The translations under genes and the position numbers were made by a program. From a virus (taxonomy: Duplodnaviria > Caudoviricetes), in the IMG/VR virus record IMGVR_UViG_3300046779_001715, positions 1 to 56,968 of that record: 56,968 nucleotides of DNA. One strand, given 5' to 3'. Under the pieces are notes generated by a model, which saw only the letters and a list, made by a program, of their open reading frames with translations, made no database searches and was not told the DNA's origin. Positions 12,139 to 41,860 of this stretch are shown here, one piece after another (positions within the stretch are counted from its first letter, which is position 1; each line of letters opens with the position of its first letter).

Positions 12139-15100
12139 TAGAATTTAGTGTGTGATGTTGTTGGTGGTGTTGTATTAGAGGTATATCGTGCATATCTACT
12201 AATTCTCAAATCTGTCATGTTACCTGTAATGTGAGTTGAACCTGCACCATCTTTACCTATGTAAAGGTATCGGTTACCCCAATTTTTAGTGTCACTATAT
12301 GTTGCACCTACTCTTGATCCATTTAAATATAAAGTGCTGATACCAGAAGAACGCACCAATGCAATATGATTCCATGCACCAAAAATAGGTGCGCCGCCAT
12401 TGATTGCTGCTCCAATGGTTGGTGAAATATAATATGTGATGTTACTGCCACTATAATATAGTAATAATCTATTAGTACCATCATTTGAATCTAACCAATC
12501 TTGTCTTGCGTTGACAGTTGGATAAGTCCAAAATTCGATTGTGAAATCACCTGTACCAAATGCATAATTTGGAGTTGATACTTGATACAAGTAATCACCA
12601 CTACCATCAAATAACATACTGCTCTTTTTGGTAGTATTTTTTGTGACAAAAGGCTGGAATGGTGTTACTTTTGTGTCACCAGTTCTTGTGAGTGTAAACG
12701 CATTAGTTGATTTATCAATAAATCTGTTTGACTGACAGGTTAACAAGCTAGTGTTTGCTATTGCAGTTAATGTTGAAGTAGGTGGTGTGGTGTTTGCAGT
12801 GTACAATGCAGTGCCACTCAACACTCTTAAGTTACTAATATAACCGTTAAAATAATCTAGTGGAGTGTTTGGATAGTATCCAATTCTTGCATTGGTTTGA
12901 AATATTGAATTTGTCCAATTTGCTGATGATACATCAATTACACCATTCAAAAATATTCTAAGTGTATTACTTGCATCTCTAGTTACTGCAATATGATTCC
13001 ATTGATATGGTGGTACTGTTGTTGCACCAGTGATGTTACCTGAAGGGTGTGTAATTGTTAATTTGTTGGATGTGTTTATATTAATAGTAAATCTATTAGA
13101 ATCGGATGTGTTATACTGAGAGTATATCATCTGATTGGTGGAAGTATTAACTTTGTTGGTGTATATCCATGCTTCAATTGTGAATTGACCAGTACTTGGT
13201 ACGGGTATTCCAGTAACATCCAAATAGTCACCAGTGCCATCAAAGTAATTACTATAGTTTTCATAATAAGGACTATTTGATGTTGTCGATTTTACTTGAC
13301 CAAGAGTTTCAAGGCTGCCAGTCATTGAATAATCTGGAATTCCAGGTGCATTATTAATTAATAAAACATCATTAACTGTTGTTGTTGGTGCCGCTGGTGG
13401 ATAGAAAGTTGATGTATATAATCCGGTACCTTTTACAACACGAACATTGCTCATAAATCCAGTAACAACTGTTGTACCACCACCATCTTTACCAATATAC
13501 ACTGGTTGATTAGTAGAAAAATTATTACTGTCTGCATATGTGCTACCAACTTGTGTTCCATTTATAAACAACCTAGTTGATCCAGAAACACGACAAAGAG
13601 CAATGTGTTGCCATGCAGCTAATGCCATGGTAGAACCAGTAATTGCAGTTGTGGAACCTACAAAGTAATTGATATTTGTGCCATCATAATAAATTAGTAA
13701 CCTGGTACCGCCGCCATTACAATCAAACCAATCTTGTCTTGCGTTAACAGTTGGATAAGCCCAAAATTCAATAGTAAAATCACCTGTACCAAATGCAAAT
13801 GCTGAGCTTGATGAAACAGTTAAATAATCTCCTGTGCCATCAAAGTAAACACTACCACCATATTTGGTTGTGTCCCAAGGTTGTGCGCCGCTTGTTGTGT
13901 AATTATAAAATGGGTTTGCAGTCTTGGTTGTAACAGTTGCGGTGATTGTTGCTGTATTTGCTTTGTTGACTGATAAATCTTCAAAAATATTTGATGATGT
14001 TAGGGATAGATAACTTGTACCGTTTGCAAATGGACTGAATGAATTAGTACCAGCAGCACCACCGGCCGCAGTTATGGTAAATACATTATTACTTCTATCA
14101 ACAATTGATGTAGATTGAGCAATCAACAACTGTGTATTTGCAATTGCTGTTAATGGGCTTGTAGGTGTTGAGGTGTTTGCTGTATATAATCCAGTACCTT
14201 TTAAGATTCTGATATTACTCATATAACCGGTAACAACAGTTGAACCGCTGCCATCTTTTCCAACATAAACCGGTTGATTACTAGAATAGTTTGTAGTATC
14301 TGTATATGTGCTGCCAACTTGTGTTCCATTTATAAACAACTTAGTTGATCCGGATACACGAGACACAGCAATGTGTTGCCATGTATTTAATGCCATGGCA
14401 GGACCAGTAATTCTATCTGAGTTACTTGCATTATAAACAATATTAGTACCATTATAATAAACCAATAATCTAGGACCAGTGCCGTTATTTACATCAATCC
14501 AGTCTTGTCTATTGTTTACTGTAGGGTATGCCCAAAACTCAACAGTGAAGTCTCCTGTACCAAACGCAAAGGCTGCATTTGATGGAACAGTTAAATAATC
14601 ACCAGTACCATCAAAGAAAACAGAACCACCATATACAGGTATTTCTGGTATTGCAGCAATGTTTGTTCCTGCACTTTGTGTTACAGTCAATTTCGATGTT
14701 GGTGGTGTAAAGTTTCCTGTGTATACGCCAATATTTCTAACGATACGTAAATTACTGATGCTGCCATTAAATTCAGATGTTGAATAACCTGGACTATCAC
14801 CAACACTACCTATTGTTAATGTGTTGGTGCCACCAAAATCATCATTCGTTGTATATGTAGAACCAACTTGTGTTCCATTGATATACAATTTAGTTGATCC
14901 TGCAATTTTAACTATGGCCGCATGATACCATTTGTTTGTGGTAACCACACCTGTTCCTGTGATTACTCCAGTATTTCCAATATTATAAACCACATTTGAA
15001 CCAGTGGTAAATAACATAGGTCTAGCATATGAACCACCAGAACCACTGTATCTAAGGTCCCAAATCCAATTGTTTTCTGTATTTGTAACAAAGAACCAAC

Positions 15101-18100
15101 ACTCAATTGTGAAATCGTTTGTGCCTAATCCAAATATTGGTGTTACACCTGCAGCTGATGGAATAATTGCATAACCAGAACCATTGAAAAGAGCACTATA
15201 AGTTGAAGGTGTCACAGTAACATTATTGAATGGACTATATTTTTGAACTGATGCGTCAGCAACTTTTGTTATTGAAAGATTATTTGGACTGTTATCGACA
15301 AAAGAATTTGATTGACAGGTCAATACGGTTGTATTAGCAACTGCTGTTAGTGGTGATGTGCTCGGTGTAAATGCTGAATCGTATAAAGATGTTCCTTTTA
15401 CAAAACGAACATTGCTTATGTAACCATAAAATATAGAGTTGGTATCAGATGCACTTCCACCAATGTTTAATGTATTTGTCGTTGCAGTTAATGATGCACT
15501 GGATGTAAATGTATGTACTTGTGTACCATTTAAGAATACTCTAAATGTTGAACCACTTCTAGTATAAGCTAAATGATACCATTGGTTGACTGCTACTGTA
15601 CCTAATGCTACCTGATTTGCCAAATTCCAAGAACCGTTATCAGAACTTGCATATAATTTTAAAGCACCACTACCTTCTATCCAAAACAAATATGGTACAA
15701 CACTAGCAAGCCTGTGAGATATAATGTATTGAGCACCAGAACCACTGGTGCCTGTAAGTACCATTGTATTGAACCATAGTTCTAGTGTAAAGTCTGATGT
15801 TCCTAATGTACCATGTTCAGTTGAAGATGCTACGGTCAAATAATCTCCAGTACCATCAAAGTAAGCACTCCAATTACTTCCATATGGATTTAGACTATTT
15901 AATGATGCGTTACCACTTCTAGTAATAAGGTTTTTAAACGAACTATTGTCAACAATCAAACTATTTGTACTTGATTGTTTTGTTTGACACATTAATAAAG
16001 CAGTATTTGGAGAATCACCTGAAGATGCTGGTAAATAAGGTGCAGTGAAAGCACTACTATAAAGGCCTGTTCCTTTTATGATTCTGAAATTAGACAAATA
16101 AAATAGTGCTGCACCACCAGCATTTGGTCCGATTGGACGAGCTGGGCTGGCAGAGTAATTATTTGTATCTGTTATAGAAAATACCTCAACACCATTTAAG
16201 AAACCTTTTGTTACACCTGAAACTCGACTAACTGCAATATGTGACCATGCATTAATTGGTATAATACCCGTTGCGCTAGTTCCAATATTTGAACCATTAA
16301 AACCCCAAATAATTCCACTATTATAATGTATAAGGTACCAGGTATTTGTTAATGTAGTTGGTCTAGAAATATTATGACCAGTGGTTGTACCGGCATTAGT
16401 TGCCCACAACCAACAATCAACAGTAAAGTCACCGGTTCCAAATATTTGTCCTGCACTATTAGCAGTGCCTTGCATACCTACCAAATAATCAGATGTTGTG
16501 GGGAAGTATGTTGAACCTTCATTACCGGAAAGTGTTAAGGTTTGATTATTTGCGGTAATTGATGTTACATTTGTTAAGAATGGGTTGACTTGAGAAATGG
16601 TGGTATCACCATTCTTTGTAATAGTAATTACATTGTTTGAGTTGTCAATGAATCTATTTGATTGACATGTTAGTAAACTTGTATTTGCAACTGTTGTTAG
16701 TTGTGATGTTGGTGGAGTGAATGCTGAAGTGTATACTGCTGTGCCTTTGATGACACGAAGGTTGGAAATATATCCGGTAGTGTGACCTTGGGATGATTGT
16801 CCACCTATAGTAAAACCAGTTTGAGTATAATTTGTGCTTACTGCTCCCGAAGTTAATAAAACACCATTTTTAAAAATGTAGGCGGTGCCACTTTTTCTAG
16901 TTATTGCATAATGATTCCAAGAATTAATGGTTTCAGTAGATGTTGCAGTTAGGTCACTAGCAGTATTAAATCTTGCCAATTGAATTGCTGTACTGGTAAT
17001 ATAAATTGACAAATAAGTTGTTGTTCCACCAGTTGCATAAGTAGCAGTATAGAAGACATTTCCTGGTGTGCTTGCTCCTGGAGCAGCAGTCCAATATGCC
17101 CAAAATTCGATTGTGAAATCTTCTGTGCCTATAGCTAAATTAGTATTGCTAGCACCACTTAAATAATCCCCAGTACCATCAAAATAGTTACTGTAGTAAC
17201 CTTCTGTGTATGGATTCATTGAACTAACGACTGGTGCACCTGTTGCCACCATATCAATATAATTAATGCTTGCATCACTATCAAAAGGCGTTGCAAGCGA
17301 ATCACTATTTAACAATAAATTATTGTATTTGAAATAAAAGTCATTAAGAGAAATCGTCCAACCTACATATCTTACAGCACTTCTTCCTGTTGTCGCTGCG
17401 GTTGCAGTCAGTGTTGTGTAAATTGTTTCAGATGTATTTGGTGTACCATAGATTGTACTACCACTGATAAACACATTTGCAGGTAAAGTATTTGCTGTAT
17501 ATGTGATGCCATAACCTGCTGCACTTGTAGCAGACAAAGTTACGTTACTCATTGGTGCATTGCCAACTAATTCATATAAATTATTATTTTCTGGTGAACT
17601 CCATGTTACAACATCGGTGTTAATTGTTAACGTGAATGCTCTAGTTGTATTTTGATTTTCACTATCTATTGCATCAACAGTAAATGAATATGTTGTACTT
17701 GAGTTATCTACTGGTGCGGTGCCTGAAATTAAACCATTGGCTGATAGTGTTGATCCAGAAGGCAAAGAACCTGATAACAATGAATATGTAATTGAACTAT
17801 CGCTTGTTGCAATGATTGATTCATTGATTGATGTGGTTTCATAGAATGAACCAATGCTTCCGGCAGGTGTTAAGTATGTTGGAAATCCAGAGTATACTAA
17901 ACCTGGTACCAAAATGCCTGTACCACCACCAGAATTTGTAACAAAAACAGTATAACTACCAGACGATAGTGCTGGTGCAATGAAGGATAATCTATTTTGA
18001 TCCAAGAATGTTACTACTGATATTGTAGTACTACCAACAAGAACGGTTGCACCAGGTGCAAAACCTGAACCATTAATAATGATGGTTTGACCACCAGCTG

Positions 18101-18260
18101 GATCAACAGTCGTATCGTCTAATGGAACATAAGAAACATCTGTGACTGTAAAGGAGTTAACTGTTGGTATTAGAAAAGTTTGTTGATTGAAGTGTTCACC
18201 AAGACCTATTAATCCTATACCATCACGTGCTCTTTTACCTCTAGAACCGGAATTAAACAT
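12138..18260 (-). CDS. Large virion adhesin: IPT/TIG and Ig-like domains followed by about 8 LamG/concanavalin-A-like domains
   Basis: N-terminal GGQTI.I.GSGF..GATV (IPT-like) and SGSLP.G.TL...G.ISGT (Ig-like), then 8 modules with FDGTGDYL...GTGDFTIE.W...W.HIA..R......F.NG...GYISNLR. Confidence 0.85.
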   Translation of the reverse strand: MFNSGSRGKRARDGIGLIGLGEHFNQQTFLIPTVNSFTVTDVSYVPLDDTTVDPAGGQTIIINGSGFAPGATVLVGSTTISVVTFLDQNRLSFIAPALSSGSYTVFVTNSGGGTGILVPGLVYSGFPTYLTPAGSIGSFYETTSINESIIATSDSSITYSLLSGSLPSGSTLSANGLISGTAPVDNSSTTYSFTVDAIDSENQNTTRAFTLTINTDVVTWSSPENNNLYELVGNAPMSNVTLSATSAAGYGITYTANTLPANVFISGSTIYGTPNTSETIYTTLTATAATTGRSAVRYVGWTISLNDFYFKYNNLLLNSDSLATPFDSDASINYIDMVATGAPVVSSMNPYTEGYYSNYFDGTGDYLSGASNTNLAIGTEDFTIEFWAYWTAAPGASTPGNVFYTATYATGGTTTYLSIYITSTAIQLARFNTASDLTATSTETINSWNHYAITRKSGTAYIFKNGVLLTSGAVSTNYTQTGFTIGGQSSQGHTTGYISNLRVIKGTAVYTSAFTPPTSQLTTVANTSLLTCQSNRFIDNSNNVITITKNGDTTISQVNPFLTNVTSITANNQTLTLSGNEGSTYFPTTSDYLVGMQGTANSAGQIFGTGDFTVDCWLWATNAGTTTGHNISRPTTLTNTWYLIHYNSGIIWGFNGSNIGTSATGIIPINAWSHIAVSRVSGVTKGFLNGVEVFSITDTNNYSASPARPIGPNAGGAALFYLSNFRIIKGTGLYSSAFTAPYLPASSGDSPNTALLMCQTKQSSTNSLIVDNSSFKNLITRSGNASLNSLNPYGSNWSAYFDGTGDYLTVASSTEHGTLGTSDFTLELWFNTMVLTGTSGSGAQYIISHRLASVVPYLFWIEGSGALKLYASSDNGSWNLANQVALGTVAVNQWYHLAYTRSGSTFRVFLNGTQVHTFTSSASLTATTNTLNIGGSASDTNSIFYGYISNVRFVKGTSLYDSAFTPSTSPLTAVANTTVLTCQSNSFVDNSPNNLSITKVADASVQKYSPFNNVTVTPSTYSALFNGSGYAIIPSAAGVTPIFGLGTNDFTIECWFFVTNTENNWIWDLRYSGSGGSYARPMLFTTGSNVVYNIGNTGVITGTGVVTTNKWYHAAIVKIAGSTKLYINGTQVGSTYTTNDDFGGTNTLTIGSVGDSPGYSTSEFNGSISNLRIVRNIGVYTGNFTPPTSKLTVTQSAGTNIAAIPEIPVYGGSVFFDGTGDYLTVPSNAAFAFGTGDFTVEFWAYPTVNNRQDWIDVNNGTGPRLLVYYNGTNIVYNASNSDRITGPAMALNTWQHIAVSRVSGSTKLFINGTQVGSTYTDTTNYSSNQPVYVGKDGSGSTVVTGYMSNIRILKGTGLYTANTSTPTSPLTAIANTQLLIAQSTSIVDRSNNVFTITAAGGAAGTNSFSPFANGTSYLSLTSSNIFEDLSVNKANTATITATVTTKTANPFYNYTTSGAQPWDTTKYGGSVYFDGTGDYLTVSSSSAFAFGTGDFTIEFWAYPTVNARQDWFDCNGGGTRLLIYYDGTNINYFVGSTTAITGSTMALAAWQHIALCRVSGSTRLFINGTQVGSTYADSNNFSTNQPVYIGKDGGGTTVVTGFMSNVRVVKGTGLYTSTFYPPAAPTTTVNDVLLINNAPGIPDYSMTGSLETLGQVKSTTSNSPYYENYSNYFDGTGDYLDVTGIPVPSTGQFTIEAWIYTNKVNTSTNQMIYSQYNTSDSNRFTININTSNKLTITHPSGNITGATTVPPYQWNHIAVTRDASNTLRIFLNGVIDVSSANWTNSIFQTNARIGYYPNTPLDYFNGYISNLRVLSGTALYTANTTPPTSTLTAIANTSLLTCQSNRFIDKSTNAFTLTRTGDTKVTPFQPFVTKNTTKKSSMLFDGSGDYLYQVSTPNYAFGTGDFTIEFWTYPTVNARQDWLDSNDGTNRLLLYYSGSNITYYISPTIGAAINGGAPIFGAWNHIALVRSSGISTLYLNGSRVGATYSDTKNWGNRYLYIGKDGAGSTHITGNMTDLRISRYARYTSNTTPPTTSHTKF

Positions 18261-30806: not shown

Positions 30807-32996
30807 TCAAATGCCTGTTCCAGCTGGTAATGCCAATGCACGAATGTCTGTTATTATAGGAATAATAGTACTATCAGTAGAAGACATTACAACTTTGATT
30901 GCAAACTGACTGAATTGACTATATGTTTCACCAGTTTCACTTGTGTAAGAAATGAAATTATCAGCCTTACCTAAAGTTCCTGGCGCACATTCAAACTCAA
31001 TTAAATTTGTTTTTGATTGTGAGTATGCGTTTTGATTTCCAACTTGAGTCATCAAGTTCCAATTTGCATCATCAAAATCTTGTGTGTCGTTACGATTTAG
31101 AATTTTGTAATACACATCGACTCTTGTTCCTAAAGGCTTGTATGCAGTATAGAATACTCTCAAATCGCCAGAATCATTTTCTGGAGTCAACACAACTTTC
31201 TTAGTGAAGTATTTTGCAAATGAGTTACCACCTTTAGGTGATGTTTCACCAAATACAACCGCAGTAGCTTGTGTTGTATTCGCACCAGAAATGGTAATTG
31301 TTGGTGATGTAATATAACCAGAACCTGGATGTACAACATAAACAGAAGAAACAACATTTGATGTTCCATTGTTTGCAACAGTTACACCCAATGTTGCTTG
31401 GTCTGTACCAATATCAGGTGCAGAAATTTCTGCTATTGTATTTGCTGCATCATCATATCCTGCACCGACTTCAACCAATGAAATTACGTTATTTTGTATT
31501 TCCATATTGTTAATAATGTAACGAATGTTGTATACAGATACACCATCATCTGAAATGATTGGAGTTACACTGTCATCAGTTGATGATAGTGATGCTGACA
31601 TTTTAAATGAAGTATTACTTTCTTTCAAGAATACCCTTTGTCCTTGGCCATCATCAAAATCTATGTTTTCAGGTGTTGGTGAACCTAATTTTCCAGGAGA
31701 TACCTCATAAGGACCAACAACAATATTACCTTCTGCGAGTGTTGCCGAGTAACTATAGTTAATGCCTGTCGCAGCAGGTGTAAAATCTGTTGTGGTCAAA
31801 TTAACTGCGTCAGACCAAGTAGTATCAGAGAAATTGCCATGCAAATTGCTGACATTATTTGCATCCAACAAATGTTGAATGTCATTTGAACCAATTTTTC
31901 TATATGGTAAACCTTTTTGTAAAGTGAAATCAATTGTTGGATTTTTAGATGTATCGAATACACATCTATCAATAACAAACATCATATTTTTTGTTTGGTC
32001 AGCAGTCCATGTTATTGAGTTTTGTGATTCAAATAATGCACCAACATATGGTGAAGCACCAATTTTTGTTGGGTTTGTTGGATTTGCATCAGATGGTTTC
32101 TCTTTTGCTGTTGACAAAACAGCTGTTGAATTTTGTTGTGCATAGTAAACTTGGTAATCAGGTGAACTGGTTTCCAACATAAATGCATACAATATACCAG
32201 GTTGAATGTATACTGGTGCTTCAAAAACAAACTCAGTATATGTGGAAGAATCCAAATAATGTGGAGTTCTAGATGTAACAACTTGACTTGCACTTAATAC
32301 AACTGTTGAATGATCCAATCTTTGTCCGTTAGGATAACCATTCAACGTATTAACAATAGATAACTTAACTGGTACATCTGTTGCTGGTTTAGAATAGAAA
32401 AATACTTTGATTGATTTAAGGAAAAGACCATTTGGGAAATTGTCTTTTTGTATAATGAAAGACTGTGCAACAGGATCTCCAGGAAGTTGCCTTGTAATCA
32501 CTGTTGTGCTTATTAATTGATTGTTTCTTTGACCAACTTGCGTAAAAGAAGATGCAGCAGAATCAATTGATGGTGAAAATTCTAATTTTTGAGAAGTTGT
32601 TGAAAGTCCAGATGCAGTAAATGTTGCTTCTGCATAAGTCGTTGCAGTTGTTGGTTGAGCTGGAACACTTCTATTATCTACACGAAATACTCTTTGTCCT
32701 GTTTGAAATACACCCGATGGTACATTAAAGATACCAACAAAATTACCACCCTCATCTGTAGATAATTGAGGTAATCCTGTTCCACTTTTAATAGCACTAG
32801 AGACATTCGTGATGTTACCAATTAAACTGTATTCTGAGGTTAAGTCACCAACAGATTCATTGTGACCTAGTGATATATTCACACCTCTGTCGAGTGTGAC
32901 TATACCAGTATCTGCATCGTAAGCTGTTACATTAGCTGTGTAGGTTGAAACACTTTGAATAATTTGTGCTGGTGATATTTTGTATGTATATGCCAT
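30807..32996 (-). CDS. C-terminal part of a DUF4815/VrlC-like virion structural protein
   Basis: G.F..P...FQTG.R.FR, DPVAQSF, G.FL.SI.VFF..K, T.F.F..PVY, GALF.SQN..TWT.DQ, Y.TK.V.L and F.QFAIK.V motifs. Confidence 0.75.
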   Translation of the reverse strand: MAYTYKISPAQIIQSVSTYTANVTAYDADTGIVTLDRGVNISLGHNESVGDLTSEYSLIGNITNVSSAIKSGTGLPQLSTDEGGNFVGIFNVPSGVFQTGQRVFRVDNRSVPAQPTTATTYAEATFTASGLSTTSQKLEFSPSIDSAASSFTQVGQRNNQLISTTVITRQLPGDPVAQSFIIQKDNFPNGLFLKSIKVFFYSKPATDVPVKLSIVNTLNGYPNGQRLDHSTVVLSASQVVTSRTPHYLDSSTYTEFVFEAPVYIQPGILYAFMLETSSPDYQVYYAQQNSTAVLSTAKEKPSDANPTNPTKIGASPYVGALFESQNSITWTADQTKNMMFVIDRCVFDTSKNPTIDFTLQKGLPYRKIGSNDIQHLLDANNVSNLHGNFSDTTWSDAVNLTTTDFTPAATGINYSYSATLAEGNIVVGPYEVSPGKLGSPTPENIDFDDGQGQRVFLKESNTSFKMSASLSSTDDSVTPIISDDGVSVYNIRYIINNMEIQNNVISLVEVGAGYDDAANTIAEISAPDIGTDQATLGVTVANNGTSNVVSSVYVVHPGSGYITSPTITISGANTTQATAVVFGETSPKGGNSFAKYFTKKVVLTPENDSGDLRVFYTAYKPLGTRVDVYYKILNRNDTQDFDDANWNLMTQVGNQNAYSQSKTNLIEFECAPGTLGKADNFISYTSETGETYSQFSQFAIKVVMSSTDSTIIPIITDIRALALPAGTGI

Positions 32997-33017
32997 TTAT
33001 TTTTTCCAAGTAATCTA

Positions 33018-36000
33018 TTATTTATTGTTGATAATACAAGCAATTTTTCCAACCAGTTTAAATATTGTCATCACAGTTTTTCGTGTGTTTGGACTTGTAT
33101 CATCTTTGAATGCTTTGACCAGTAAATTATTCACAAGACTGACATTCAATTTGCCGAATGTGTTGTTTATTAGATAAGCACCATATGATGTATCTTTTCC
33201 GGCAGAAATACATGTGTTCAATACCGTTTCGACAATATCGTTAGTCACAACTTCTTTTTCTAACATCAATCTCAACACCCCACCATCACCAATGATTGTT
33301 GTTGTTCCATATCCATTAACTGTATATGTTCCATCACCATCGGTCCATAGGTTATAAACCATTTTGCCTTCTGACGGAGAAACTTTCACTGGATCAATTT
33401 TTTCCATTTTACCTAACCATGGATAATAATTTTCTACCACCTTAGGATCAACAGCAGACAATTTACCATCAATATACAAAGGATGTTCGATAGTCGCAAA
33501 CGGTTCAAAATCTTTTGATGGTGTGTACAGTGAACCAAAATTTGTATCCAAAGCTTTTTCGACAAAAGTAACTGTATTCAATTCAGTTTTGTTTTTGTTC
33601 CACACTTTATCGCCAATTTTAATATCAACAATTTTCTTTTTACCAGTTATGGTATCAACAATAGTTTCTGATGTAAAGCAATTTGAACCGCCGCCACCTC
33701 CACCACCAGATGCTTTAGGTGCAACATATGTGGCTGTTTCGGTAATATATTCTTGTATGAATTTACTTGTTATACTGATTTTTGCACCAACATAATAATC
33801 ATCAATGTTTGTTGCTCGTGAATCTAATTTCAATCTAGTCACACCAGTAAACCAAGCACCACCTTGAGGCAAAATAATTTCCTGTGCAACTGAATCATAA
33901 TTTAAATTTGGAGGATTTGTTGACTGGAATACAATTTTGCCATTTGGATCTTTAATAACCAAAGCAAATCCAGAAGAGCCTGTATTTGAACCAGTAACAG
34001 TCCAAGACAATGTTCTAGTATTCAAATTAGTAATATTTAACGTTGCAGTAGTTACAGTTTTTGGATCGCTAGATGTAACAATTGTGGTTGTATTAGATTT
34101 AACAGTTGCTGATCCTGTTGAAGAACATTGAATTGTATATGTTCCTGTTTCTAATGGTGCATATACAAATGAAGCTGAATAACTTGCAGTGTGTTTTAAA
34201 TCACCCCAAACACCATATTGATTTAAGAATGTACCCCAATCATGACTGTTTTTTACTCTATAGATTTGTAAATTAGGCTCATTGTTAGCAGTGTAACTTC
34301 CACCAATACCAGTAATTAAACCAGATGTTGATAGAGGAATAACAGTATCATCAATTGTACCATTTGCGGTTGTACCACTATAAACACCGTTTGCATCAAA
34401 TGTAGCATTTCTAATTGAATTTGTCGGTGAATAATTTGGTGCACCAAGTAAGTTAGCAACATACAATCTAACTTTTGTTGTGTTTGGATATTTGTATGTT
34501 GAAACTACACGAGCTGTTGGATAGAATTTATTTGTGTAAAAGAATCCAACAATATCATCTTCATTGAATGTACCAGTAACATCTTTCAACTCAATTGTAT
34601 TTGGTGTTTGAATGTATTGGCTAACATCTTGACCATCAAAGTATGCGTTTACTGGAGTGTTAACCAATAAGCCTTTAGATTTGAAAACAATTTGTTGTGC
34701 TCTGATATATGGAAGAACGGCAATATTGGTCAGATAACCATTCTCACTTCCAATAGTAGAAGAAACTTGTGAATAACTTCCTGAAGTAATATTTCTCAGT
34801 TGGTCAGCATAATTTTTTGTGGTAGTTGTTACTGTTCGTCCACTTGTAGATGAACTTGATGATGAACTAGAAGTTCCTGGAATTGTTGCAAAATCTCCAG
34901 CATTTAAAATGTTTACACCATTTGTTTCTTGGTATACTTCGATAGAAGGATCAACTACAACAATGGCTGGTGCTTGAGTATTATCAACCCAATTGTCCAT
35001 TGGTGGATTAAGTTTAGCAACACCTTCATAAACGGCAACACCAAATGGATTCAAACTAACTGTGCTTGATGCTAGTTGTTGAATAACAACATTTGAACTC
35101 GTATATGGTAGAGTAAATACATTTGTGTTAGTGCCAGAAATGCTTGAAATTGCAAAGTTGTTTGTTTTCTTTAATGTTCCTAAAGAATTCAACACAGTTG
35201 GGTTTTGCAATTGGAAGTTGTCAACCAAAGTCAATGGTGTAAGTTGTTTAGTTCTTACATTAATTTTAGCAGCATAGTCTGCATTTTCTGTATCGGCTGT
35301 TGAGTATGATGAGAAGTCATCAACAAGAATACCGTTCTTGAAACGATTCAAACCATTAACATCCGGTACTTGTAATGATTGTGCATTAGATTCCAACAAA
35401 CTCAATGATGAATAATATTCAAGGTTATTAACTCTGGACTGCAAATCAGTAATGTCTCGTTTGACCCAGTTTTTGTGAAGTACTTTCTCAATAGACAAGT
35501 CTGAGTTGATTTGTCCACTAATTTCACCTGGAATAAATGCAGTGTATGGATTGTGGTCTAATTTTGCCAACACCAATGAACCATCAGGTTCTGTTGGATA
35601 TACTGGCGTTACAGAAGGTGTGCCACTAATAATTTTAAATGAACGATCCTTGGTCAAAACTAATTTATCTTTTCTACCAAGATAGTAACTATAATCACTA
35701 ACATATTCATTCAAGTTTTGTGGTAACATAATACCAGAACTATCAACAGCTGGGTTTCCTGTGTATCTGTATGTTAAAGTTGATACAGCATTTTTTCTAA
35801 CTGGTCTGAAATCAACACAGTCGGATAATTTATATTTGGTTCCTCGTCTACTTGTGAAAGTAGGTATTTCTTGATAAACTTCTGGAGAAGAAGAATTTGG
35901 TGACAAATAAGATTTGATACTGAAGTAACCATCACCACCAGAGTGTGAGTAGAAATCATATATGACCAATAAGTTACCTTTTGGAAGATTTGCACCAGAA

Positions 36001-38408
36001 ACTAATTTAACCGATGCATGGTCATAATAATTATCTCTTTGACCATTATCCAATGTGAATAGATTCGTCACATCATAAGATGAATCAGACAACATTGCAG
36101 CTGTTGGATTCACTGTAGGATCTTTTGTGTCAATAATTTTAACAATTTGTTTAACATCAGACACATATAAACTGGTTGTTTTAGTTATGCCAGCTCTTTT
36201 GATATATGTTTGACCGTTGGTTAAATCGACATAGAAATTTGTATTTACAAGTGTGCCGTTGATGTGAACACCACCTGTGTTACCTTCAACTAGGTTTTTA
36301 ATTTTCAAAATACTGCTTGTGTTATCAGCATTTGAAACATTCAAATCACAAATAACGTCTACATTATAACCTGAATAAGTACTTGATGCAAATGTTGCTG
36401 TCTTTTTATCTGATGAAAGAGAAATTGTATTTCCACTGGAAATAAAATCTAAAATTTGGCCCGATGTTCTATCAATAACAATAAAGTTTTGTTTGATAAC
36501 ATCAGATGATAATGCACCAGAAGTACCTAAGAATGTATATGGTGTTCCTGATGATATTGAAATTACTAATTCACCACCGGTGATGGTTTGGTCACGATAT
36601 ACTTTTGTGGAAACATAGTTACTATTGGATACATTAGCTATGTATGAGTACCCAATAGGAAATACCAACTCAGGTGCGTTTGGATTTTCTAGAATCGTAT
36701 CACCAGTAACAAGTCCATTTCTTTTACCTGACAAATCAATGTTTGCAGTTGAAACAATAACATTACTTGAATTTCTATAAACAATAGATTCTATTGTTGA
36801 GGTAGAAAATGATATTGTAAAAGTGCTTGAATTTGTTGGATTAATTGTAAACGCTGAATCAACAGTGGCAACTCTAGTTGTACCGTTATATGCAGTAATT
36901 TTTCTAGTATCTATTGTACCAGATGTATTGACTGTGATAGATGCACCATAATATGCATCAGTTACGGTAGAGAATTGTGCAGTAACTGGCAATGAAATGG
37001 TTGTTGCAGTACCAGTCACAGCAGTACCAGTTAATGTTGTTGTGTTAACATCGGAGATGTATGCTCTGTAAACATATGTTGCGGTATTACTATCAGAGGT
37101 GCTACTTACATATTGTAAGTTTCTAATATTAGCAGAACCAACCAATGTCGAATTATATGTTGTTGTATTTGCCGTAGAGATACCTGAGTTACCAACACAA
37201 TGCAAATCAATTTTTGGCATTGTAGTAACATCAAAAGTACCTTTTACACTATTGACGGTCAAATAACTACCATAATCAATAAAGATGGCATTGTTTAAAA
37301 TATTATCTGTTGTTCTGGCTCTGTCATTTGTAAGAACAAGATTTGATTGATTTTCAATTCTATAACCGTGTACATATGCAAGGCCTTTTCCAACACCCAA
37401 ATCATATGTTGAAGAATTGATTGTGTTTGTTGATGGTGTAAGTTTGAATTCATTAACAATATAGTCACCATTGGATTCATAATCACGTTTTGCAAAGTAA
37501 TCGTCAATTACGGAGTATACTGTACCATCAACTTGTTTAACAATCTTGCCATTATCAATACGAACCAACTCAATGAATTGGTCATCATTACCAACTGTTA
37601 ATGGTAATGCAGTCAATATTAAATTGATTTGATATCTGTCTGCACCTGGTGCTTGGTAGTTTGATGCACCGACCGCAGGATCTAATAATGATGAATCGTC
37701 AACATAGTCTACAATTGTTTCATAAATTTGTAAACCAATACGGAATGAAGGCGTATTACTGTACTTGCTTAGAATGGTTGTCTGTGGTTGAACAGAAACA
37801 AAGTTACCAATAGAATACTTGCTGAATGTTCCATCTTCATTTTGTGTAGGAGATGTATAATAACCGTTTCTAACGTAGAAAACACCTTCTGAAATGGATG
37901 ATACTGATGATAAACCGGTGCATGTTGTTTCACCATCAACACCAATTGTTGTTGCAGTGTAATTAGAATCATCAGTTGTATAGATAGTCATGTTGTCTGT
38001 GAACTGAACACCAGACAGATAGTTAACAATCAAAGTTGGTGGTTCAGTAGAAGAAACATCTGTGCCAATTGATTCAGCAGTTGCAACAACCTTTGCAAGA
38101 ATAGTACCACTAGCATCTTGAATCAATTTATTCTTAAAATCTGCCGCAACAATATCAATATTGTTTTGTTGTTTGTTTAACTTAATATAACTACAATTTA
38201 AGTTTGTTGTAACTTTACCACCAGTTACTGGTGTATTTTGTGAGAAAATATTGTCAGCAAATTTTGAAATTTGACTTTGTAGTATTGTTTGTGACTGTGT
38301 TAATTCACGAGCCTGAACAGCAGAACCTGGTTTGAATAGAATCCTGTGGAAGTTTTTTGAAGGATCAAAATCATCGTGATATGGTTTAACATTAAAATTG
38401 AGAGACAT
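33018..38408 (-). CDS. N-terminal part of a DUF4815/VrlC-like virion structural protein with a C-terminal Hint domain
   Basis: N..PY.DDFD..KNFHRILFKPG.AVQARELTQ.Q.ILQ.Q, APGADR, R.Y.E.GDY.V, NLEYY.SLSLLE and RFKNG.LVDDF motifs; then G7-SN/CFT...TIEHP...VYNL. Confidence 0.8.
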   Translation of the reverse strand: MSLNFNVKPYHDDFDPSKNFHRILFKPGSAVQARELTQSQTILQSQISKFADNIFSQNTPVTGGKVTTNLNCSYIKLNKQQNNIDIVAADFKNKLIQDASGTILAKVVATAESIGTDVSSTEPPTLIVNYLSGVQFTDNMTIYTTDDSNYTATTIGVDGETTCTGLSSVSSISEGVFYVRNGYYTSPTQNEDGTFSKYSIGNFVSVQPQTTILSKYSNTPSFRIGLQIYETIVDYVDDSSLLDPAVGASNYQAPGADRYQINLILTALPLTVGNDDQFIELVRIDNGKIVKQVDGTVYSVIDDYFAKRDYESNGDYIVNEFKLTPSTNTINSSTYDLGVGKGLAYVHGYRIENQSNLVLTNDRARTTDNILNNAIFIDYGSYLTVNSVKGTFDVTTMPKIDLHCVGNSGISTANTTTYNSTLVGSANIRNLQYVSSTSDSNTATYVYRAYISDVNTTTLTGTAVTGTATTISLPVTAQFSTVTDAYYGASITVNTSGTIDTRKITAYNGTTRVATVDSAFTINPTNSSTFTISFSTSTIESIVYRNSSNVIVSTANIDLSGKRNGLVTGDTILENPNAPELVFPIGYSYIANVSNSNYVSTKVYRDQTITGGELVISISSGTPYTFLGTSGALSSDVIKQNFIVIDRTSGQILDFISSGNTISLSSDKKTATFASSTYSGYNVDVICDLNVSNADNTSSILKIKNLVEGNTGGVHINGTLVNTNFYVDLTNGQTYIKRAGITKTTSLYVSDVKQIVKIIDTKDPTVNPTAAMLSDSSYDVTNLFTLDNGQRDNYYDHASVKLVSGANLPKGNLLVIYDFYSHSGGDGYFSIKSYLSPNSSSPEVYQEIPTFTSRRGTKYKLSDCVDFRPVRKNAVSTLTYRYTGNPAVDSSGIMLPQNLNEYVSDYSYYLGRKDKLVLTKDRSFKIISGTPSVTPVYPTEPDGSLVLAKLDHNPYTAFIPGEISGQINSDLSIEKVLHKNWVKRDITDLQSRVNNLEYYSSLSLLESNAQSLQVPDVNGLNRFKNGILVDDFSSYSTADTENADYAAKINVRTKQLTPLTLVDNFQLQNPTVLNSLGTLKKTNNFAISSISGTNTNVFTLPYTSSNVVIQQLASSTVSLNPFGVAVYEGVAKLNPPMDNWVDNTQAPAIVVVDPSIEVYQETNGVNILNAGDFATIPGTSSSSSSSSTSGRTVTTTTKNYADQLRNITSGSYSQVSSTIGSENGYLTNIAVLPYIRAQQIVFKSKGLLVNTPVNAYFDGQDVSQYIQTPNTIELKDVTGTFNEDDIVGFFYTNKFYPTARVVSTYKYPNTTKVRLYVANLLGAPNYSPTNSIRNATFDANGVYSGTTANGTIDDTVIPLSTSGLITGIGGSYTANNEPNLQIYRVKNSHDWGTFLNQYGVWGDLKHTASYSASFVYAPLETGTYTIQCSSTGSATVKSNTTTIVTSSDPKTVTTATLNITNLNTRTLSWTVTGSNTGSSGFALVIKDPNGKIVFQSTNPPNLNYDSVAQEIILPQGGAWFTGVTRLKLDSRATNIDDYYVGAKISITSKFIQEYITETATYVAPKASGGGGGGGSNCFTSETIVDTITGKKKIVDIKIGDKVWNKNKTELNTVTFVEKALDTNFGSLYTPSKDFEPFATIEHPLYIDGKLSAVDPKVVENYYPWLGKMEKIDPVKVSPSEGKMVYNLWTDGDGTYTVNGYGTTTIIGDGGVLRLMLEKEVVTNDIVETVLNTCISAGKDTSYGAYLINNTFGKLNVSLVNNLLVKAFKDDTSPNTRKTVMTIFKLVGKIACIINNK
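33019..33026 (-). promoter_or_regulatory. Putative late promoter (AATAAATA) for the second DUF4815 half
   Basis: TAAATA core overlapping the stop codon of the 1796-aa ORF. Confidence 0.45.
33297..33680 (-). other. Hint (Hedgehog/intein) autoprocessing domain, about 128 aa, without C-terminal His-Asn
   Basis: Block A CFTSETIV.T..G.K.I.DIKIGDKV (Cys codon 33678-33680), block B ATIEHPLY (TxxH), block F VYNL...DGTY.VNG; terminal motif is YGTTT rather than xxVHN. Confidence 0.85.
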
Positions 38409-38418
38409 TTTTTTCCTT

Positions 38419-39819
38419 TTAGTATCCTAATACAAATCTAATTTGTTCTATTCCGTCAGCACTTCTTACAACGCCTGTCCTATTTTCAATAAACGAAATA
38501 TATCCTGAGAGTATTGTAAAATTCGGTTCACTAGATGTTAGTAATGTTCTTGTTGTTTTTGATACGTTACTAAACAGAGGCGCATTTGTGATTGGACTTC
38601 CTACTATATTTATCAACTTAACCACGTTGCTTGCAGCATCAAAACTCAAAACTCTTGCTGTAAATGAAGATGTTTCTGGTGTTAATCCACCTTGATAGAC
38701 GAACTCATCACTAACATAAGTTCCAAAACCAGGTGCAACAATCACATCTGTTGTTGTCTTATATATATCGCCATTTGCCGGGTAAGGTGTTGGTGACAAA
38801 TCATTCTTGGCTTCCAAGTACATACTCTGTGTTGTTGGGTTAATTAGTAGACCGAGTTGGTGAAAATCTATATCAGTTGGTATAGAACCATTCTCATCAC
38901 CCTCAAATTGACAAGTATACATGACATGAGCACAACCCAATTCGGAAATTGGATCAAACCCGTGGCCACCAATAGGAGAAGAATTGGCCTGCAACACGGC
39001 ACCAGAACCATTAGTTGAACTAATTTCTGCTGTGGTATATGTATAGTTGGTACCTGGATTCGTTATCAAAATATCCTGTATCACTCCATCAGATATGTCT
39101 GCCACGGCTCTTGCACCTGTTCCGTCACCAGTTATGACAACTGTAATAACGGAGTTACCTGGATCGTATCCTGACCCACCATCAATGACATTAATACTGT
39201 CGATACTACCTGCACCTGCACTGGTAACTAATGGGTTTGGTGTATTAGAACCAACAGGAACTGGCAACCATTCTGTGTCCATGAATTTGACTTTTTGGCC
39301 AGCATCAATCGTATAGATATATTTCCACTTATAACCATCTGAACCCTTGAACACGTTATTTGTGTCATAAGAACCAGGTTCAAAATATGGTTCATCAGTT
39401 GAAGGTTGTGTGTTGTTATTCCACAAACATTTGAACACTTGGTCATAAGAGTTCTTGACATAAAAATGATATCTTAAATAACCATTTACATCTTTCTCCA
39501 AAATGTCAATGTCATCACGGTAAATATCGTATGTTGTGCCTGTGGTCCAATCAATGCGTTGAATGACTGGAGAAATATCGTTCGACTTAATTTTCTTGGC
39601 AACAAATATATTTTTAAAGATTTGTTTGATTGCCTTTTGGTCTGTAGTTGGTACAGGTGGATTTTCTTCATCCTCCCAAGGTTCTGCTTTAGACAAAAAA
39701 CAATATGTTGTTGTCACTGGTATTGTAGTTGAAGGAGGAATCACAGAAACAGGTCCGTAATAGACCTGTTCTATTTGTGATACCTTGGCACCGTATGTGA
39801 TAATATTTTTATTTGACAT
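38419..39819 (-). CDS. gp8: Baseplate wedge subunit
   Basis: V..RIDW..GT.YD.Y, FYV.N....V.KCL.N, ST.EP, DGYKWKY.YTI, P.GGHG.D...EL and Y..NR....R..D..E.I..V motifs. Confidence 0.9.
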   Translation of the reverse strand: MSNKNIITYGAKVSQIEQVYYGPVSVIPPSTTIPVTTTYCFLSKAEPWEDEENPPVPTTDQKAIKQIFKNIFVAKKIKSNDISPVIQRIDWTTGTTYDIYRDDIDILEKDVNGYLRYHFYVKNSYDQVFKCLWNNNTQPSTDEPYFEPGSYDTNNVFKGSDGYKWKYIYTIDAGQKVKFMDTEWLPVPVGSNTPNPLVTSAGAGSIDSINVIDGGSGYDPGNSVITVVITGDGTGARAVADISDGVIQDILITNPGTNYTYTTAEISSTNGSGAVLQANSSPIGGHGFDPISELGCAHVMYTCQFEGDENGSIPTDIDFHQLGLLINPTTQSMYLEAKNDLSPTPYPANGDIYKTTTDVIVAPGFGTYVSDEFVYQGGLTPETSSFTARVLSFDAASNVVKLINIVGSPITNAPLFSNVSKTTRTLLTSSEPNFTILSGYISFIENRTGVVRSADGIEQIRFVLGY

Positions 39820-39823
39820 GGTT

Positions 39824-39831
39824 TATTTATT
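39824..39831 (-). promoter_or_regulatory. Putative late promoter (AATAAATA) upstream of gp8
   Basis: Overlaps the upstream stop, 4 nt before the gp8 ATG with no obvious RBS; possibly a near-leaderless mRNA. Confidence 0.5.
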
Positions 39832-41860
39832 ATGCGTATGTTACTGCAACGAAAGTATTTGCTTGGTCACCATCAATACTAAAATATTTTAGATAAACTG
39901 AACGACCGGATGCAATTGACAATGAAGTTGCGCCAATAGTCGAGTTGTTTGCCAAACATCCGTGTACAACTGTTTGTCCGTTACCTGCTGTGTTTGTCAA
40001 CCACATTTCAACAATTTTGCCTGCAACATAATTTGATAATGTGTTTGTTACTGTTGCACCAAATGTTGCACGAATCATTGAGTCGGTTGCAAAGTCAATT
40101 GTAATCGCAGTCTGGTCACCTGATAAAATTCTAGGAGTATATGAAAAACCTTTTTGTGGATTTACCGTACCTGTAATTGTAACTGTGTTTGCATTGAACG
40201 ATGCAATTTGTGTTAATGTATTTGAACCTTCTTGCACATTATAAAATTTAATTGCTGTGCCTCTGGCTGTGTCGGTGTGATTTTCTGTTGCAATAAAATC
40301 TATTCTAGCAGTACCACCAGATTGATATGATGTTGCACCAAAACCACTTGCACCAATTCGTGTTAGAACATCACCTGTTTGAACCGCAGATGGATTTGTT
40401 ACGTTGCCTCTTGCTGCACGACCACCAAACAACGGGAAAACAAGTTGTCCGTTAGCACCAAAAGAATCGGATACCACTCTGACTGGAACATTATGTTTAC
40501 CAGTCATGTGTAGTACATAACCATCACCACCAGTTGGTTGAGTTGCACCGGTATTTGATGCACTGATTGTAACCAAACCTTGTGTTGATGTGAATGTTGC
40601 ATTTGCAAATTTGATTGTTCCATTAACATTCAAATTTTCTGTAATTGCCAAAGTACCAGCAAATGTGCCAGTTGTATTTTGTAATGCCCCTTCACCCCAT
40701 GTGTATGCTTGTTGTGCGATTGGAGTAATTATTGCTAATTGACCGTTTGCGGATGTTGCAACAGTATATGCGGAATTGGCCTTAACGTAGGCTGAATTTG
40801 CATAGTTAAATCCAGTGTTAGCATACTGTGAAGCTCCTGCGGCATTATTGGTTGCAGTGTTTGCCTGTTCATATGCAGAATTGGCATAAGTTCCAGTTGT
40901 ATTCTGACTGCCATATGCAGAATTTGCCTTTAGGAAGGCCGCATTAGATTGTAAGAATGCTGCATCAGCAGAACTAGAATATGCTAGGTTTGCCTTTTCA
41001 AAAGCAGAGTTAGCATGAATGAATGCTGCATTTGACTGAACAAAAGAACCATTTGCATACAAGGCCGCAGAATTGGCCACATGATTTGGTGTATTTGCTT
41101 GTAAGAATGCTGCGTTTGCCTGAATAAAAGCACCGTTGGCATACAATGATGCAGAGTTTGAAGATGCATATGCTGAGTTCGCATATGTTCCTGTAGTGTT
41201 CTGTGAAGAATAGGATGCGTTTGCTTTTATAAACGCTGAGTTTGCAGATAAACCTGCGGCCGCCGGTGATGTGACTTGTACTGTGCCATCAGAGAACGTG
41301 ATTCCATGGTCGTTTACCAAATAAAAACCACCATGTTTAATTTTTGCAATAACATTTTCTGATGCACCGCCACCAGCAATGAATTTAATTTCTGTGTTTG
41401 ATACGGTTGTACCGATTGTTAGATTGCCACCGAGATGACCTTCACTACCTTGTACGTAGATATAACCATCTAATGGATAAATTGCAGTGCCTAAACTATT
41501 GTATTCAGAACCTGGTACAAAATCCTTGTTTGCATAACCCGTATCTAAAAAGTATGTTGTGTCTGATCCTGTGTTTGCCGTAACAACAATATCTGCTGTA
41601 CCACCGTCATTAGTATTAACAAGGTTGGTTTGAATGTATGAGTTACCTGATGCTGCAAACTGTGCTGCGGTGTTTGGCAGTGTTAACTCACGATTGCCAA
41701 CATTCAAAACTTCATTGGCATAAAGGTCACGAGCCAGTGTTCTTGCTGTAAATTTACCTGTAATGCCTGTTGGAATATCCACACCCATTAACAATGTGTT
41801 GGATGTGTTTGCACGAATTGATGGAATAGGTGCTAATTGTGAAATTTTTACTGTTGACAT
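39830..41860 (-). CDS. Baseplate-associated fibre protein with Ala/Asn heptad stalk
   Basis: MSTVKISQL N-terminus, about 170 aa of ANSA(Y/F)..AN heptads, beta-rich C-terminal domains; inserted between gp7 and gp8. Confidence 0.65.
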   Translation of the reverse strand: MSTVKISQLAPIPSIRANTSNTLLMGVDIPTGITGKFTARTLARDLYANEVLNVGNRELTLPNTAAQFAASGNSYIQTNLVNTNDGGTADIVVTANTGSDTTYFLDTGYANKDFVPGSEYNSLGTAIYPLDGYIYVQGSEGHLGGNLTIGTTVSNTEIKFIAGGGASENVIAKIKHGGFYLVNDHGITFSDGTVQVTSPAAAGLSANSAFIKANASYSSQNTTGTYANSAYASSNSASLYANGAFIQANAAFLQANTPNHVANSAALYANGSFVQSNAAFIHANSAFEKANLAYSSSADAAFLQSNAAFLKANSAYGSQNTTGTYANSAYEQANTATNNAAGASQYANTGFNYANSAYVKANSAYTVATSANGQLAIITPIAQQAYTWGEGALQNTTGTFAGTLAITENLNVNGTIKFANATFTSTQGLVTISASNTGATQPTGGDGYVLHMTGKHNVPVRVVSDSFGANGQLVFPLFGGRAARGNVTNPSAVQTGDVLTRIGASGFGATSYQSGGTARIDFIATENHTDTARGTAIKFYNVQEGSNTLTQIASFNANTVTITGTVNPQKGFSYTPRILSGDQTAITIDFATDSMIRATFGATVTNTLSNYVAGKIVEMWLTNTAGNGQTVVHGCLANNSTIGATSLSIASGRSVYLKYFSIDGDQANTFVAVTYA

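Follow-up and report, generated by a model that had tools for sequence, protein, structure and literature searches.

A putative self-removing, non-splicing Hint module at the break of a split VrlC baseplate protein in an uncultured T4-like phage

Hint domains are known for the splicing of inteins, for the attachment of cholesterol to Hedgehog proteins and for the cleavage of their flanks in bacterial surface proteins, and the chemistry of the HINT superfamily is well established, consisting in an N-to-S acyl shift at the nucleophile in position 1. What, then, might such a domain be doing at the very end of a phage baseplate protein, precisely where the gene of that protein is broken in two? 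The question is raised by the DNA of an uncultured T4-like phage (IMG/VR record IMGVR_UViG_3300046779_001715; we call the window the whole stretch that was analysed, positions 1 to 56,968, hence 56,968 nucleotides), in which the large baseplate protein VrlC is encoded as two genes. The reading that we favour, with a probability of about 0.55, is that the domain would act as a self-removing, non-splicing Hint 'cap' on the N-half of this two-gene VrlC.

The first of the two genes (33018..38408, minus strand) is an open reading frame of 1796 residues. It contains DUF4815 (PF16075) at 183.8 bits for a Pfam cut-off of 30, and its residues 3-1318 match positions 5-1275 of the 2056 of the phrog_358 profile (E 6.9e-226). 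The second (30807..32996, minus strand), of 729 residues, takes up the same profile at positions 1278-1649. In an alignment with the 2045-residue VrlC of Pelagibacter phage Mosig, residues 1-1416 are covered by the N-half and residues 1427-2043 by the C-half. What the original prediction had called a giant virion protein is one half, the N-terminal one, of a VrlC baseplate protein that is split, and the next gene is its C-half. In Mosig and in 29 uncultured relatives the two halves form one chain, and the C-half is 46-61% identical to the C-terminal parts of these 29. Immediately upstream lies a gene for a gp8-like baseplate wedge subunit (38419..39819, minus strand; phrog_438, E 5.4e-78), an order that matches that of Mosig, where a baseplate Gp8 protein is followed by VrlC. 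The two loci have the same halves and a gp8-like gene upstream in common, whereas here the chain is broken in a linker and its first piece bears the Hint-tail cassette.

The layout of the first gene, all on the minus strand, may be followed from its start. The VrlC-homologous body (residues 1-1563; 33720..38408) includes a 'mid' region, residues 1267-1565, that is common to 96 proteins, among which 29 are unsplit, 28 end in the same Hint-tail module and 39 have other ends. A flexible linker, PKASGGGGGGGSN (residues 1564-1576; 33681..33719), leads to Asn1576, the last residue before the putative cleavage site. The last 220 residues are made of the Hint domain (residues 1577-1704; 33297..33680), recognized by profile, fold and conservation, and of a helical tail (residues 1705-1796; 33021..33296). 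A stop codon and a 21-nt spacer (32997..33020), read directly from the DNA, separate it from the C-half gene. In the unsplit relatives the exact position that the cassette occupies here is taken by a Gly-rich linker between the two halves. The window holds no second copy of the module, and in the literature searched we found no description of an N-half and C-half arranged in this way around a terminal Hint-tail.

The Hint domain starts with Cys1577-Phe-Thr, and its block B reads F-A-T-I-E-H-P, with Thr1639 and His1642; the domain further contains Glu1617, Asp1692 and Asn1698. Blocks F and G are contained in VYNLWTDGDGTYTVNGYGTTT (residues 1684-1704), after which 92 residues remain up to the stop, and block G reads G-T-T-T, Thr-Thr standing at the His-Asn positions of inteins, followed by Thr-Ile. 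Curated Pfam profiles stay below their gathering cut-offs: the best match, PT-HINT (PF07591; E 3.8e-5, profile positions 1-125 of 137), scores 24.4 bits for a cut-off of 27.7, Hint_2 17.3 for 28.4 and Hint (PF01079) 13.0 for 29.7. The structure speaks more plainly. An AlphaFold2 model of the 230-residue module, built on a 50-row alignment, has a pLDDT of 94.0 and a pTM of 0.88 and displays a beta-rich part followed by five helices. Foldseek retrieved 31 matches in the PDB at E <= 0.001, those listed all being Hint-fold proteins, with BIL2 of the Tetrahymena BUBL1 locus first (6y75; E 6e-7; best target TM-score about 0.6), then a Vint domain, the gp41-1 intein, the Clostridium thermocellum BIL (2lwy) and DnaB inteins; the Hedgehog structures 1at0 and 6tyy, at E 2-4e-4, are weaker matches than these BIL, Vint and intein structures. 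A profile of the module family searched against PDB sequences recovers the same proteins. At the level of the predicted fold, the module belongs to the HINT superfamily. A Hint domain at the end of the protein, a flexible linker in front of it, an intact Cys1 and block-B TxxH, and the lack of a terminal His-Asn had all been foreseen, and are all found; the comparison with Hint, BIL and Hog families is divided, the fold being matched while the curated profiles fall short.

Conservation points in the same direction. The module family comprises 292 clusters, found almost entirely on viral contigs. Among the 189 relatives that the profile matches from its first positions onwards, Cys1 and the block-B His are invariant (189/189 each), the block-B Thr is present in 179 and replaced by Ser in the other 10, Asp116 of the module is kept in 178, and Glu41, a nearly invariant acidic residue, in 164. 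The positions of the intein His-Asn read TS in 93 of these relatives, HS in 35, TT in 18, HN in 7 and other pairs in 36, with Asn at the second block-G position in 15. The module is always terminal, its match ending 0-44 residues from the end of the protein in 163 full-length cases, none of which is internal or N-terminal. At least four Gly are found within the 12 residues before Cys1 in 86 modules out of 160. As for the residue immediately before Cys1, Gly is the commonest in the family (68/160) and Asn is found here, a departure from the family type that we count against self-removal. The family appears to be absent from cultured phages, a tblastn search of 50,697 records with the 230-residue query giving no match at E <= 1e-3. 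Genomes of 185,579 species, explored with one search pattern, yielded 3 loci, all of them in metagenome-assembled genomes.

The original prediction of some 92 helical residues after the Hint domain holds good, with five helices at positions 144-227 of the 230-residue model, and the helical tail is kept across the module family, as a check on homologues was meant to establish. Modelled alone it retains a pLDDT of 86.3, and its highest 19-residue hydropathy, 1.08, is not that of a membrane-spanning segment. It has no detectable relative outside the module family: no match in the PDB at E <= 0.001 (best E 5.5), a best score of 0.89 in the ESM Atlas, under the lead level of 0.9, and no family in Pfam or NCBIfam. 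Pretoxin-HINT domains of polymorphic toxins, the best Pfam match, are likewise followed by a C-terminal domain; the downstream domain is conserved here, not polymorphic, and matches no toxin family. Because the tail is part of the cassette and not of VrlC, its function is probably generic, for example gating or completing the Hint reaction.

That we are dealing with a cassette follows from comparison with close relatives. For P0004, one of them, identity to the present protein is 88-95% over the VrlC body, falls sharply at the linker between body and cassette, and is 62% for the Hint domain and 54% for the tail. AU tests reject congruence of the body and cassette trees (p 1.6e-75 and 5e-7), with groups that were named after the identities had been seen. 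Across 10 loci, identities of the N-half and the C-half are correlated with a rho of 0.85, those of the cassette with the N-half at 0.31 and with the C-half at 0.54, values that are descriptive only because pairs of loci are not independent, the N segment of one locus (L009) being in addition offset by an extra Hint array. To judge from these sequences, the Hint-tail is an exchangeable cassette that close relatives have swapped by recombination. Other relatives have unrelated modules at the same VrlC break. The end module of P0223 is a CFI-box-CTERM domain (NF041770; 61.3 bits for a threshold of 40), of which the module of the window shows no match, and two further types have membrane-like segments. 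When the tail was compared with other end modules by hhalign, the probabilities were 1.7% for a 'CCVVAT'-type module, 5.3% for an 'IIC'-type module and, with the CFI-box module that ends P0223, 0.4%; no homology is shown by any of them.

The cassette is intact in independent samples. In metagenome run X3, a contig of 4133 nt extends from the C-half through the cassette into the N-half and differs from the window at 94 letters. In X5 and X6, parts of the cassette are matched by contigs that differ at 0-2 letters, the comparison being interpreted over the covered parts. The Gly-coding run of the linker varies in length among metagenome contigs, with insertions at 33699-33707. The RNA run X20 contributed no more than a contig of 258 nt (34066-34322) and a piece of 39 nt, which gives no evidence of transcription.

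How would such a module work? Splicing, which the original prediction had already set aside, is excluded because the block-G Asn is absent while the residues of the acyl shift are kept in a genuine Hint fold; the Thr-Thr at block G, the lack of a continuing C-extein and the three in-frame stops all agree with this. With inteins and split inteins the module has the fold and the residues of blocks A and B in common, but it lacks the His-Asn, the +1 nucleophile and a homing endonuclease, and its 'C-extein' is a separate gene past three stop codons: a block-G His-Asn with Cys, Ser or Thr at +1 of a continuing C-extein is lacking, and the downstream protein does not begin with a fragment of a C-intein, there being no His-Asn in the start of the C-half. 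N-terminal self-processing would be the expected chemistry of what is left. The first VrlC product would bear a catalytically competent Hint domain on a Gly-rich tether, packed against the five-helix domain. Most likely, a thioester would form at Asn1576/Cys1577, Cys1577 attacking the Asn1576-Cys1577 bond with the help of Thr1639 and His1642, and the module would then remove itself. This thioester cannot proceed to splicing, and would therefore be resolved mainly by water, releasing a mature N-half ending in GGGGGGGSN and a free Hint-tail fragment of 220 residues. The N-half and the separately translated C-half of 729 residues would finally associate non-covalently into a VrlC-like component of the baseplate.

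Peptidase S74 intramolecular chaperone domains, at the C-terminus of phage tailspikes and fibres, cleave themselves off after doing their job by means of a serine-lysine dyad; the analogy with a Hint cap is functional only, fold and Cys-thioester chemistry being unrelated. Closer in fold are the BIL domains, two of which (2lwy and 6y75) are among the best structural matches. PMC7765530 presents them as non-splicing Hint domains that cleave their flanks in variable, non-conserved proteins, type B having every intein motif except the C-terminal one and performing N-terminal cleavage. The motif pattern of the module appears to fit type B, all intein motifs but the C-terminal one being recognizable, and not type A, with its C-terminal His-Asn (TT here; HN in 7 of 189 relatives). 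It differs from BIL domains in forming a sequence family of its own (E 0.018 for its profile against 2lwy), in being always terminal, in its conserved helical tail and in its residence on viral contigs. Simple self-removal does not explain why a tail of 90 residues should be conserved, nor why unrelated, non-Hint modules should be present at the same break.

The cassette also lends itself to an evolutionary account, which seems to us possible while being clearly less probable. A largely selfish unit, made of Hint domain, tail, stop codon and new downstream start, would have split genes and spread by recombination, its targets being the flexible linkers of large tail proteins; self-cleavage would only render the insertion harmless, and this account would call for no chemistry other than that of the self-removing cap. 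It would fit the coexistence of split and unsplit forms among the 96 proteins, the presence of the module at three different VrlC break points at least and in many non-VrlC proteins, the incongruence of the trees together with the drop in identity at the linker, and the tandem arrays of Hint domains, with nothing in between, of some relatives. Contigs of three runs that match one side only of the linker region 33670-33726 are a weak hint in this direction, because loose ends occur elsewhere too. Against it, neither the cassette nor its surroundings contain a nuclease or any other function of mobility, GC content is flat (0.31-0.37 along the cassette, similar to its flanks), and the presence of non-Hint modules at this site speaks for the selection of an end function of some kind and against parasitism.

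It is more doubtful that the thioester is handed on instead of being hydrolysed. The Hint domain would then activate the Gly-rich C-terminus of the N-half for a nucleophile, either a lipid or small molecule in a Hedgehog-like manner, or an amine of another baseplate protein, the C-half included; in this latter case the split protein would be made whole again or the baseplate cross-linked. The best structural match, BIL2 of BUBL1, is a domain that conjugates ubiquitin-like domains to other proteins; Glu41 (164/189) would be a candidate general base; and a Gly-rich linker does bridge both halves of the unsplit relatives at the cassette position. [quoted passage not shown] That Hint and the following region stand at the extreme C-terminus is a likeness of architecture only. 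A Hog domain is marked by its specific motifs J, K and L (PMC2362128) and by a general base that activates the sterol. The module differs from Hog by its place in a phage baseplate protein, by the low score of the Pfam Hint profile (13 bits for 29.7) and by a tail that is similar to no known binding region in the PDB or the ESM Atlas. Nothing points to a sterol or other adduct, and the Hedgehog-type modification that had been proposed finds no pointer here. The same tail is found on very different host proteins and before very different downstream genes, and this speaks against an acceptor specific to one partner. The residue that follows Met in the C-halves is Ala, Ser, Pro, Gly, Thr or Lys, a position without a conserved nucleophile, and the cassette evolves independently of both halves. 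The particular form in which an amine of the C-half or of a neighbouring baseplate protein would resolve the poly-Gly thioester, the tail positioning the acceptor so that the split protein is re-joined or cross-linked, is more doubtful still; if true, phages would possess their own version of the Hint-mediated conjugation seen with Hedgehog or BUBL.

We consider it quite improbable that the Hint-tail simply stays in the virion as a structural or binding domain, its conserved Cys being otherwise used. The compact globular unit of the AlphaFold2 model could in principle decorate a baseplate, but the invariant residues are the exact catalytic set of the N-terminal acyl shift, none of the 163 full-length modules is internal or N-terminal, and the poly-Gly tether is of the kind present at the cleavage sites of related autoprocessing domains. 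As for a single VrlC chain restored by a split intein or by read-through, which two open reading frames that share a frame and are separated by only 21 nt might evoke, the sequence contradicts it: three stop codons intervene (in the upstream frame the spacer reads TAA, TAG, then TAA just before the next ATG), the two genes of relatives overlap or lie 19 to 46 nt apart, at distances that are not always divisible by three, a block-G His-Asn is absent, and the C-half does not begin with a nucleophile, its start aligning with unsplit VrlC relatives and therefore being no intein fragment.

If the module is indeed a self-removing cap, a compact domain that makes a C-terminal thioester after a Gly linker could serve protein engineering. 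The CFI-box-CTERM domain, uncharacterised and tied to the same position, would offer a handle on the function of C-terminal modules initiated by Cys. A large family of Hint domains, found almost entirely on viral contigs, that are terminal, do not splice, are followed by a tail resembling no solved structure and stand exactly at the breaks of giant baseplate genes would add a new setting to those in which Hint domains are known. It also suggests that gene fission in the host-recognition machinery of phages is tolerated, or exploited, via end modules that remove themselves.

The giant protein bearing the Hint module is encoded on the minus strand at 33018-38408 (1796 residues), and it is the first half of a split baseplate gene, a context that the original prediction omits. 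Its body is VrlC/DUF4815 (Pfam, 183.8 bits) and matches positions 5-1275 of the 2056 of phrog_358 (E 6.9e-226); the next ORF, at 30807-32996 on the same strand (729 aa), matches positions 1278-1649 of that family. VrlC of the cultured Pelagibacter phage Mosig is a single protein of 2045 residues, preceded as in the window by a gp8-like baseplate gene, with residues 1-1416 aligning to the N-half of the window and 1427-2043 to the 729-aa ORF. Passages in PMC7029224 and PMC12379486 describe VrlC as substituting for T4 gp7 in pelagimyophages and cyanomyophages and as adjoining a hypervariable host-recognition cluster, and a passage in PMC4621102 reports it as abundant in the PhiM12 proteome, its homologue in Listeria phage A511 being localized to the baseplate. 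Another minus-strand ORF (12138-18260, 2040 aa) contains eight repeated stretches and matches several PHROG families of baseplate wedge subunits or virion structural proteins; it is a further giant repetitive tail protein of the same phage. Between two baseplate wedge genes lies a 676-aa ORF (39830-41860, minus strand), for which PHROG gave no match at E <= 1e-5.

The split can be followed among 96 proteins that have residues 1267-1565 of the window protein in common, sorted by BLAST: 29 form a single unsplit chain (2161-2507 residues), this region continuing directly into a homologue of the 729-aa ORF, 28 have the Hint-tail module at their end and 39 have another ending. The linker, Hint domain, tail, stop codon, 21 nt and new ATG of the window correspond in P0230, one of the unsplit relatives, to a Gly-rich linker about 40 residues long. 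Read-through joining the two ORFs is ruled out, because three stop codons interrupt the upstream frame within the spacer and the spacing differs among relatives; a split intein is ruled out too, since the C-half aligns with unsplit VrlC from its first residues.

In the translated ORF we find the layout that had been proposed: a linker, PKASGGGGGGGSN (residues 1564-1576), a Hint domain starting with Cys1577-Phe-Thr, the block-B motif with Thr1639 and His1642, the block-F/G stretch VYNLWTDGDGTYTVNGYGTTT (residues 1684-1704), then a tail of 92 residues and a stop codon. Curated profiles recognize this domain only weakly: against the last 230 residues PT-HINT gives 24.4 bits, below its cut-off of 27.7 (E 3.8e-5, profile positions 1-125 of 137), Hint_2 gives 17.3 bits and Hint 13.0. 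An AlphaFold2 model of the module, built from 50 aligned relatives, shows five helices after a beta-rich part (pLDDT 94.0, pTM 0.88) and yields 31 Foldseek matches in the PDB at E <= 0.001. The best is the BIL2 domain of the Tetrahymena BUBL1 locus (E 6e-7), followed by a Tetrahymena Vint domain, the gp41-1 intein, a BIL domain of C. thermocellum and DnaB inteins, the Hedgehog autoprocessing domain ranking behind them (E 2-4e-4); as the alignments span only about 130-190 columns, the tail is left uncovered. The same PDB proteins are recovered when the family profile is compared with PDB sequences, and the fold is clear despite the weak scores of the curated profiles.

Searching with the module without a word index gave 292 clusters at E <= 1e-3, 100 of them at E <= 1e-30, and a length-restricted search gave 68 large proteins with the whole module at 36-70% identity. 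The module profile matches all 209 proteins stored from these searches, 163 of them in full, and each of the latter has 0-44 residues between the end of the match and its C-terminus. Residues were counted in the 189 proteins whose match begins at the first profile positions, numbering from Cys1: the N-terminal cleavage motifs are intact, as anticipated, with Cys at position 1 and the block-B His at position 66 in all 189, and Thr at position 63 in 179, Ser standing in the other 10; Asp116 (178/189), Asn122 (184/189) and Glu41 (164/189) are also widely conserved. The predicted lack of His-Asn is equally borne out, the window protein having TT at the equivalent positions, where the family has TS (93), HS (35), TT (18), HN (7) or other pairs (36); with Asn at the second position in 15 of the 189, the residue for C-terminal cleavage or splicing has been lost in most of the family and kept by a few distant members. 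Immediately ahead of Cys1 stands an Asn in the window protein and a Gly in 68 of 160 modules, the preceding stretch being Gly-rich in 86 of the 160 and hydrophobic in 18; in 23 proteins another, canonical Hint domain ending in VHNK comes immediately before Cys1.

No match to the module was found in 50,697 phage genome records. A prokaryote scan with one peptide pattern, in which each of 185,579 species was represented by one genome, gave three loci, all in metagenome-assembled genomes (Burkholderiales, Gammaproteobacteria and Erysipelotrichaceae; two contigs below 4 kb), which could represent prophages or binned phage DNA. Many proteins of similar structure, from uncultured phages and giant viruses, are labelled 'Hint domain containing' in the BFVD library; annotation of Hint domains on phage proteins thus already exists, and no characterized Hint protein was found among them.

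Modelled alone, the tail again forms five helices (pLDDT 86.3). Foldseek gave no structural relative for it in the PDB (best E 5.5), no ESM Atlas lead reached 0.9, and neither Pfam nor NCBIfam gave a match. With a highest 19-residue hydropathy of 1.08 it does not look membrane-spanning, and the complete model, with its high pTM, suggests packing of the tail onto the Hint domain.

The 39 other ends at the window-type break (equivalent to 33681-33719) follow the same Pro/Gly linker. Sixteen are modules of about 190 residues starting with I-I-C, 13 are modules of about 115 residues starting with CC/GC-V-V-A-T, one (P0223) is a CFI-box-CTERM end (NF041770, 61.3 bits, cut-off 40), four have almost nothing after the linker and five are of other kinds; these relatives lie within P0210-P0259. 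The three named modules start with Cys after the linker as well, and several of the first two have membrane-like segments (hydropathy 1.5-2.4); the Hint tail has no detectable kinship with any other end module compared. Four relatives, split and unsplit (P0238, P0239, P0241, P0242), have about 150 additional residues inserted at the linker, sharing an LGR(L/K)PE...YWT-like motif, so that the site accommodates in-frame domains in addition to terminal cassettes.

Among 80 viral contigs with the module, mapped on the unsplit relative P0273, the downstream ORF is the VrlC C-part in 29, at three break points: residues ~1560-1578 (11 loci, the window type), ~1695-1730 (13 loci) and ~1140 (5 loci). 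Eight more have a VrlC-like body followed by a small, unrelated ORF, two are cut by the contig end, and in 41 the VrlC reference matches neither host protein nor downstream ORF; Pfam on ten of these hosts gave one Gly_rich_2, one LRR with Ig and one array of six Hint stretches. Tandem arrays of canonical Hint domains (Hom_end_hint stretches) with almost no gaps, each ending in VHNK directly before the next Cys-Phe, were seen in two contigs: four at L009:4970-7012, ahead of the terminal Hint-tail module, and six at L027:1574-7084, placed ahead of that module by sequence inspection.

Identity between the window protein and the relative P0004 is 88-95% along the VrlC body and falls to 62% over the Hint domain and 54% over the tail. 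Trees of 23 relatives pair the body with that of P0004 (support 100) and group the cassette with those of P0002 and P0003 (support 98-99); the opposite groupings fail AU tests (p 1.6e-75 and 5e-7), values that overstate the case, as the groups were named after identities had been seen, the effect remaining large. These sequence comparisons indicate that the cassette evolves as a self-contained unit, exchanged by recombination. In public sequencing runs, a 4133-nt contig (X3, labelled marine) runs from the C-half through the cassette into the N-half and differs in 94 letters, and contigs from drinking water (X5) and an estuary (X6) contain cassette pieces with 0-2 differing letters. Contigs of two runs have small insertions at 33699-33707, within the poly-Gly-coding run, so that linker length varies in natural populations; several contigs match the window on a single side of the linker region, a weak hint only, as loose ends occur elsewhere too.

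Full-text searching of the published literature found no Hint domain described in VrlC/DUF4815, nor in cyano- or pelagimyophage structural proteins, and 'DUF4815' and 'CFI-box' were absent from the papers returned by one such search. The module is not an intein and falls below the cut-off of every curated Hint profile; in motif pattern BIL domains are closest, and its architecture resembles that of the Hog domain, in which, according to PMC2362128, a Hint domain is followed by a recognition region at the very C-terminus. Its own conserved tail is of no recognized kind. The module is predicted to act like a non-splicing Hint domain. A Hint fold with conserved residues for the N-to-S acyl shift stands terminally on a flexible Gly tether, the module has neither the Asn nor a continuing C-extein, and its host gene is split. 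Transfer of a thioester to a lipid, a small molecule or a protein amine, which takes in the Hedgehog-type modification of the original prediction as well as re-ligation of the two halves, is unsupported, and we hold it unlikely. We favour self-removal, at a probability of about 0.55, by analogy with the chemistry of the HINT superfamily as outlined in PMC7765530: Cys1577 and Asn1576 would form a thioester which, splicing being impossible, would be resolved, most simply by water, the 220-residue Hint-tail would depart, and the mature N-half would pair with the separately made C-half. The modules of other kinds at the same site hint at some shared end function.
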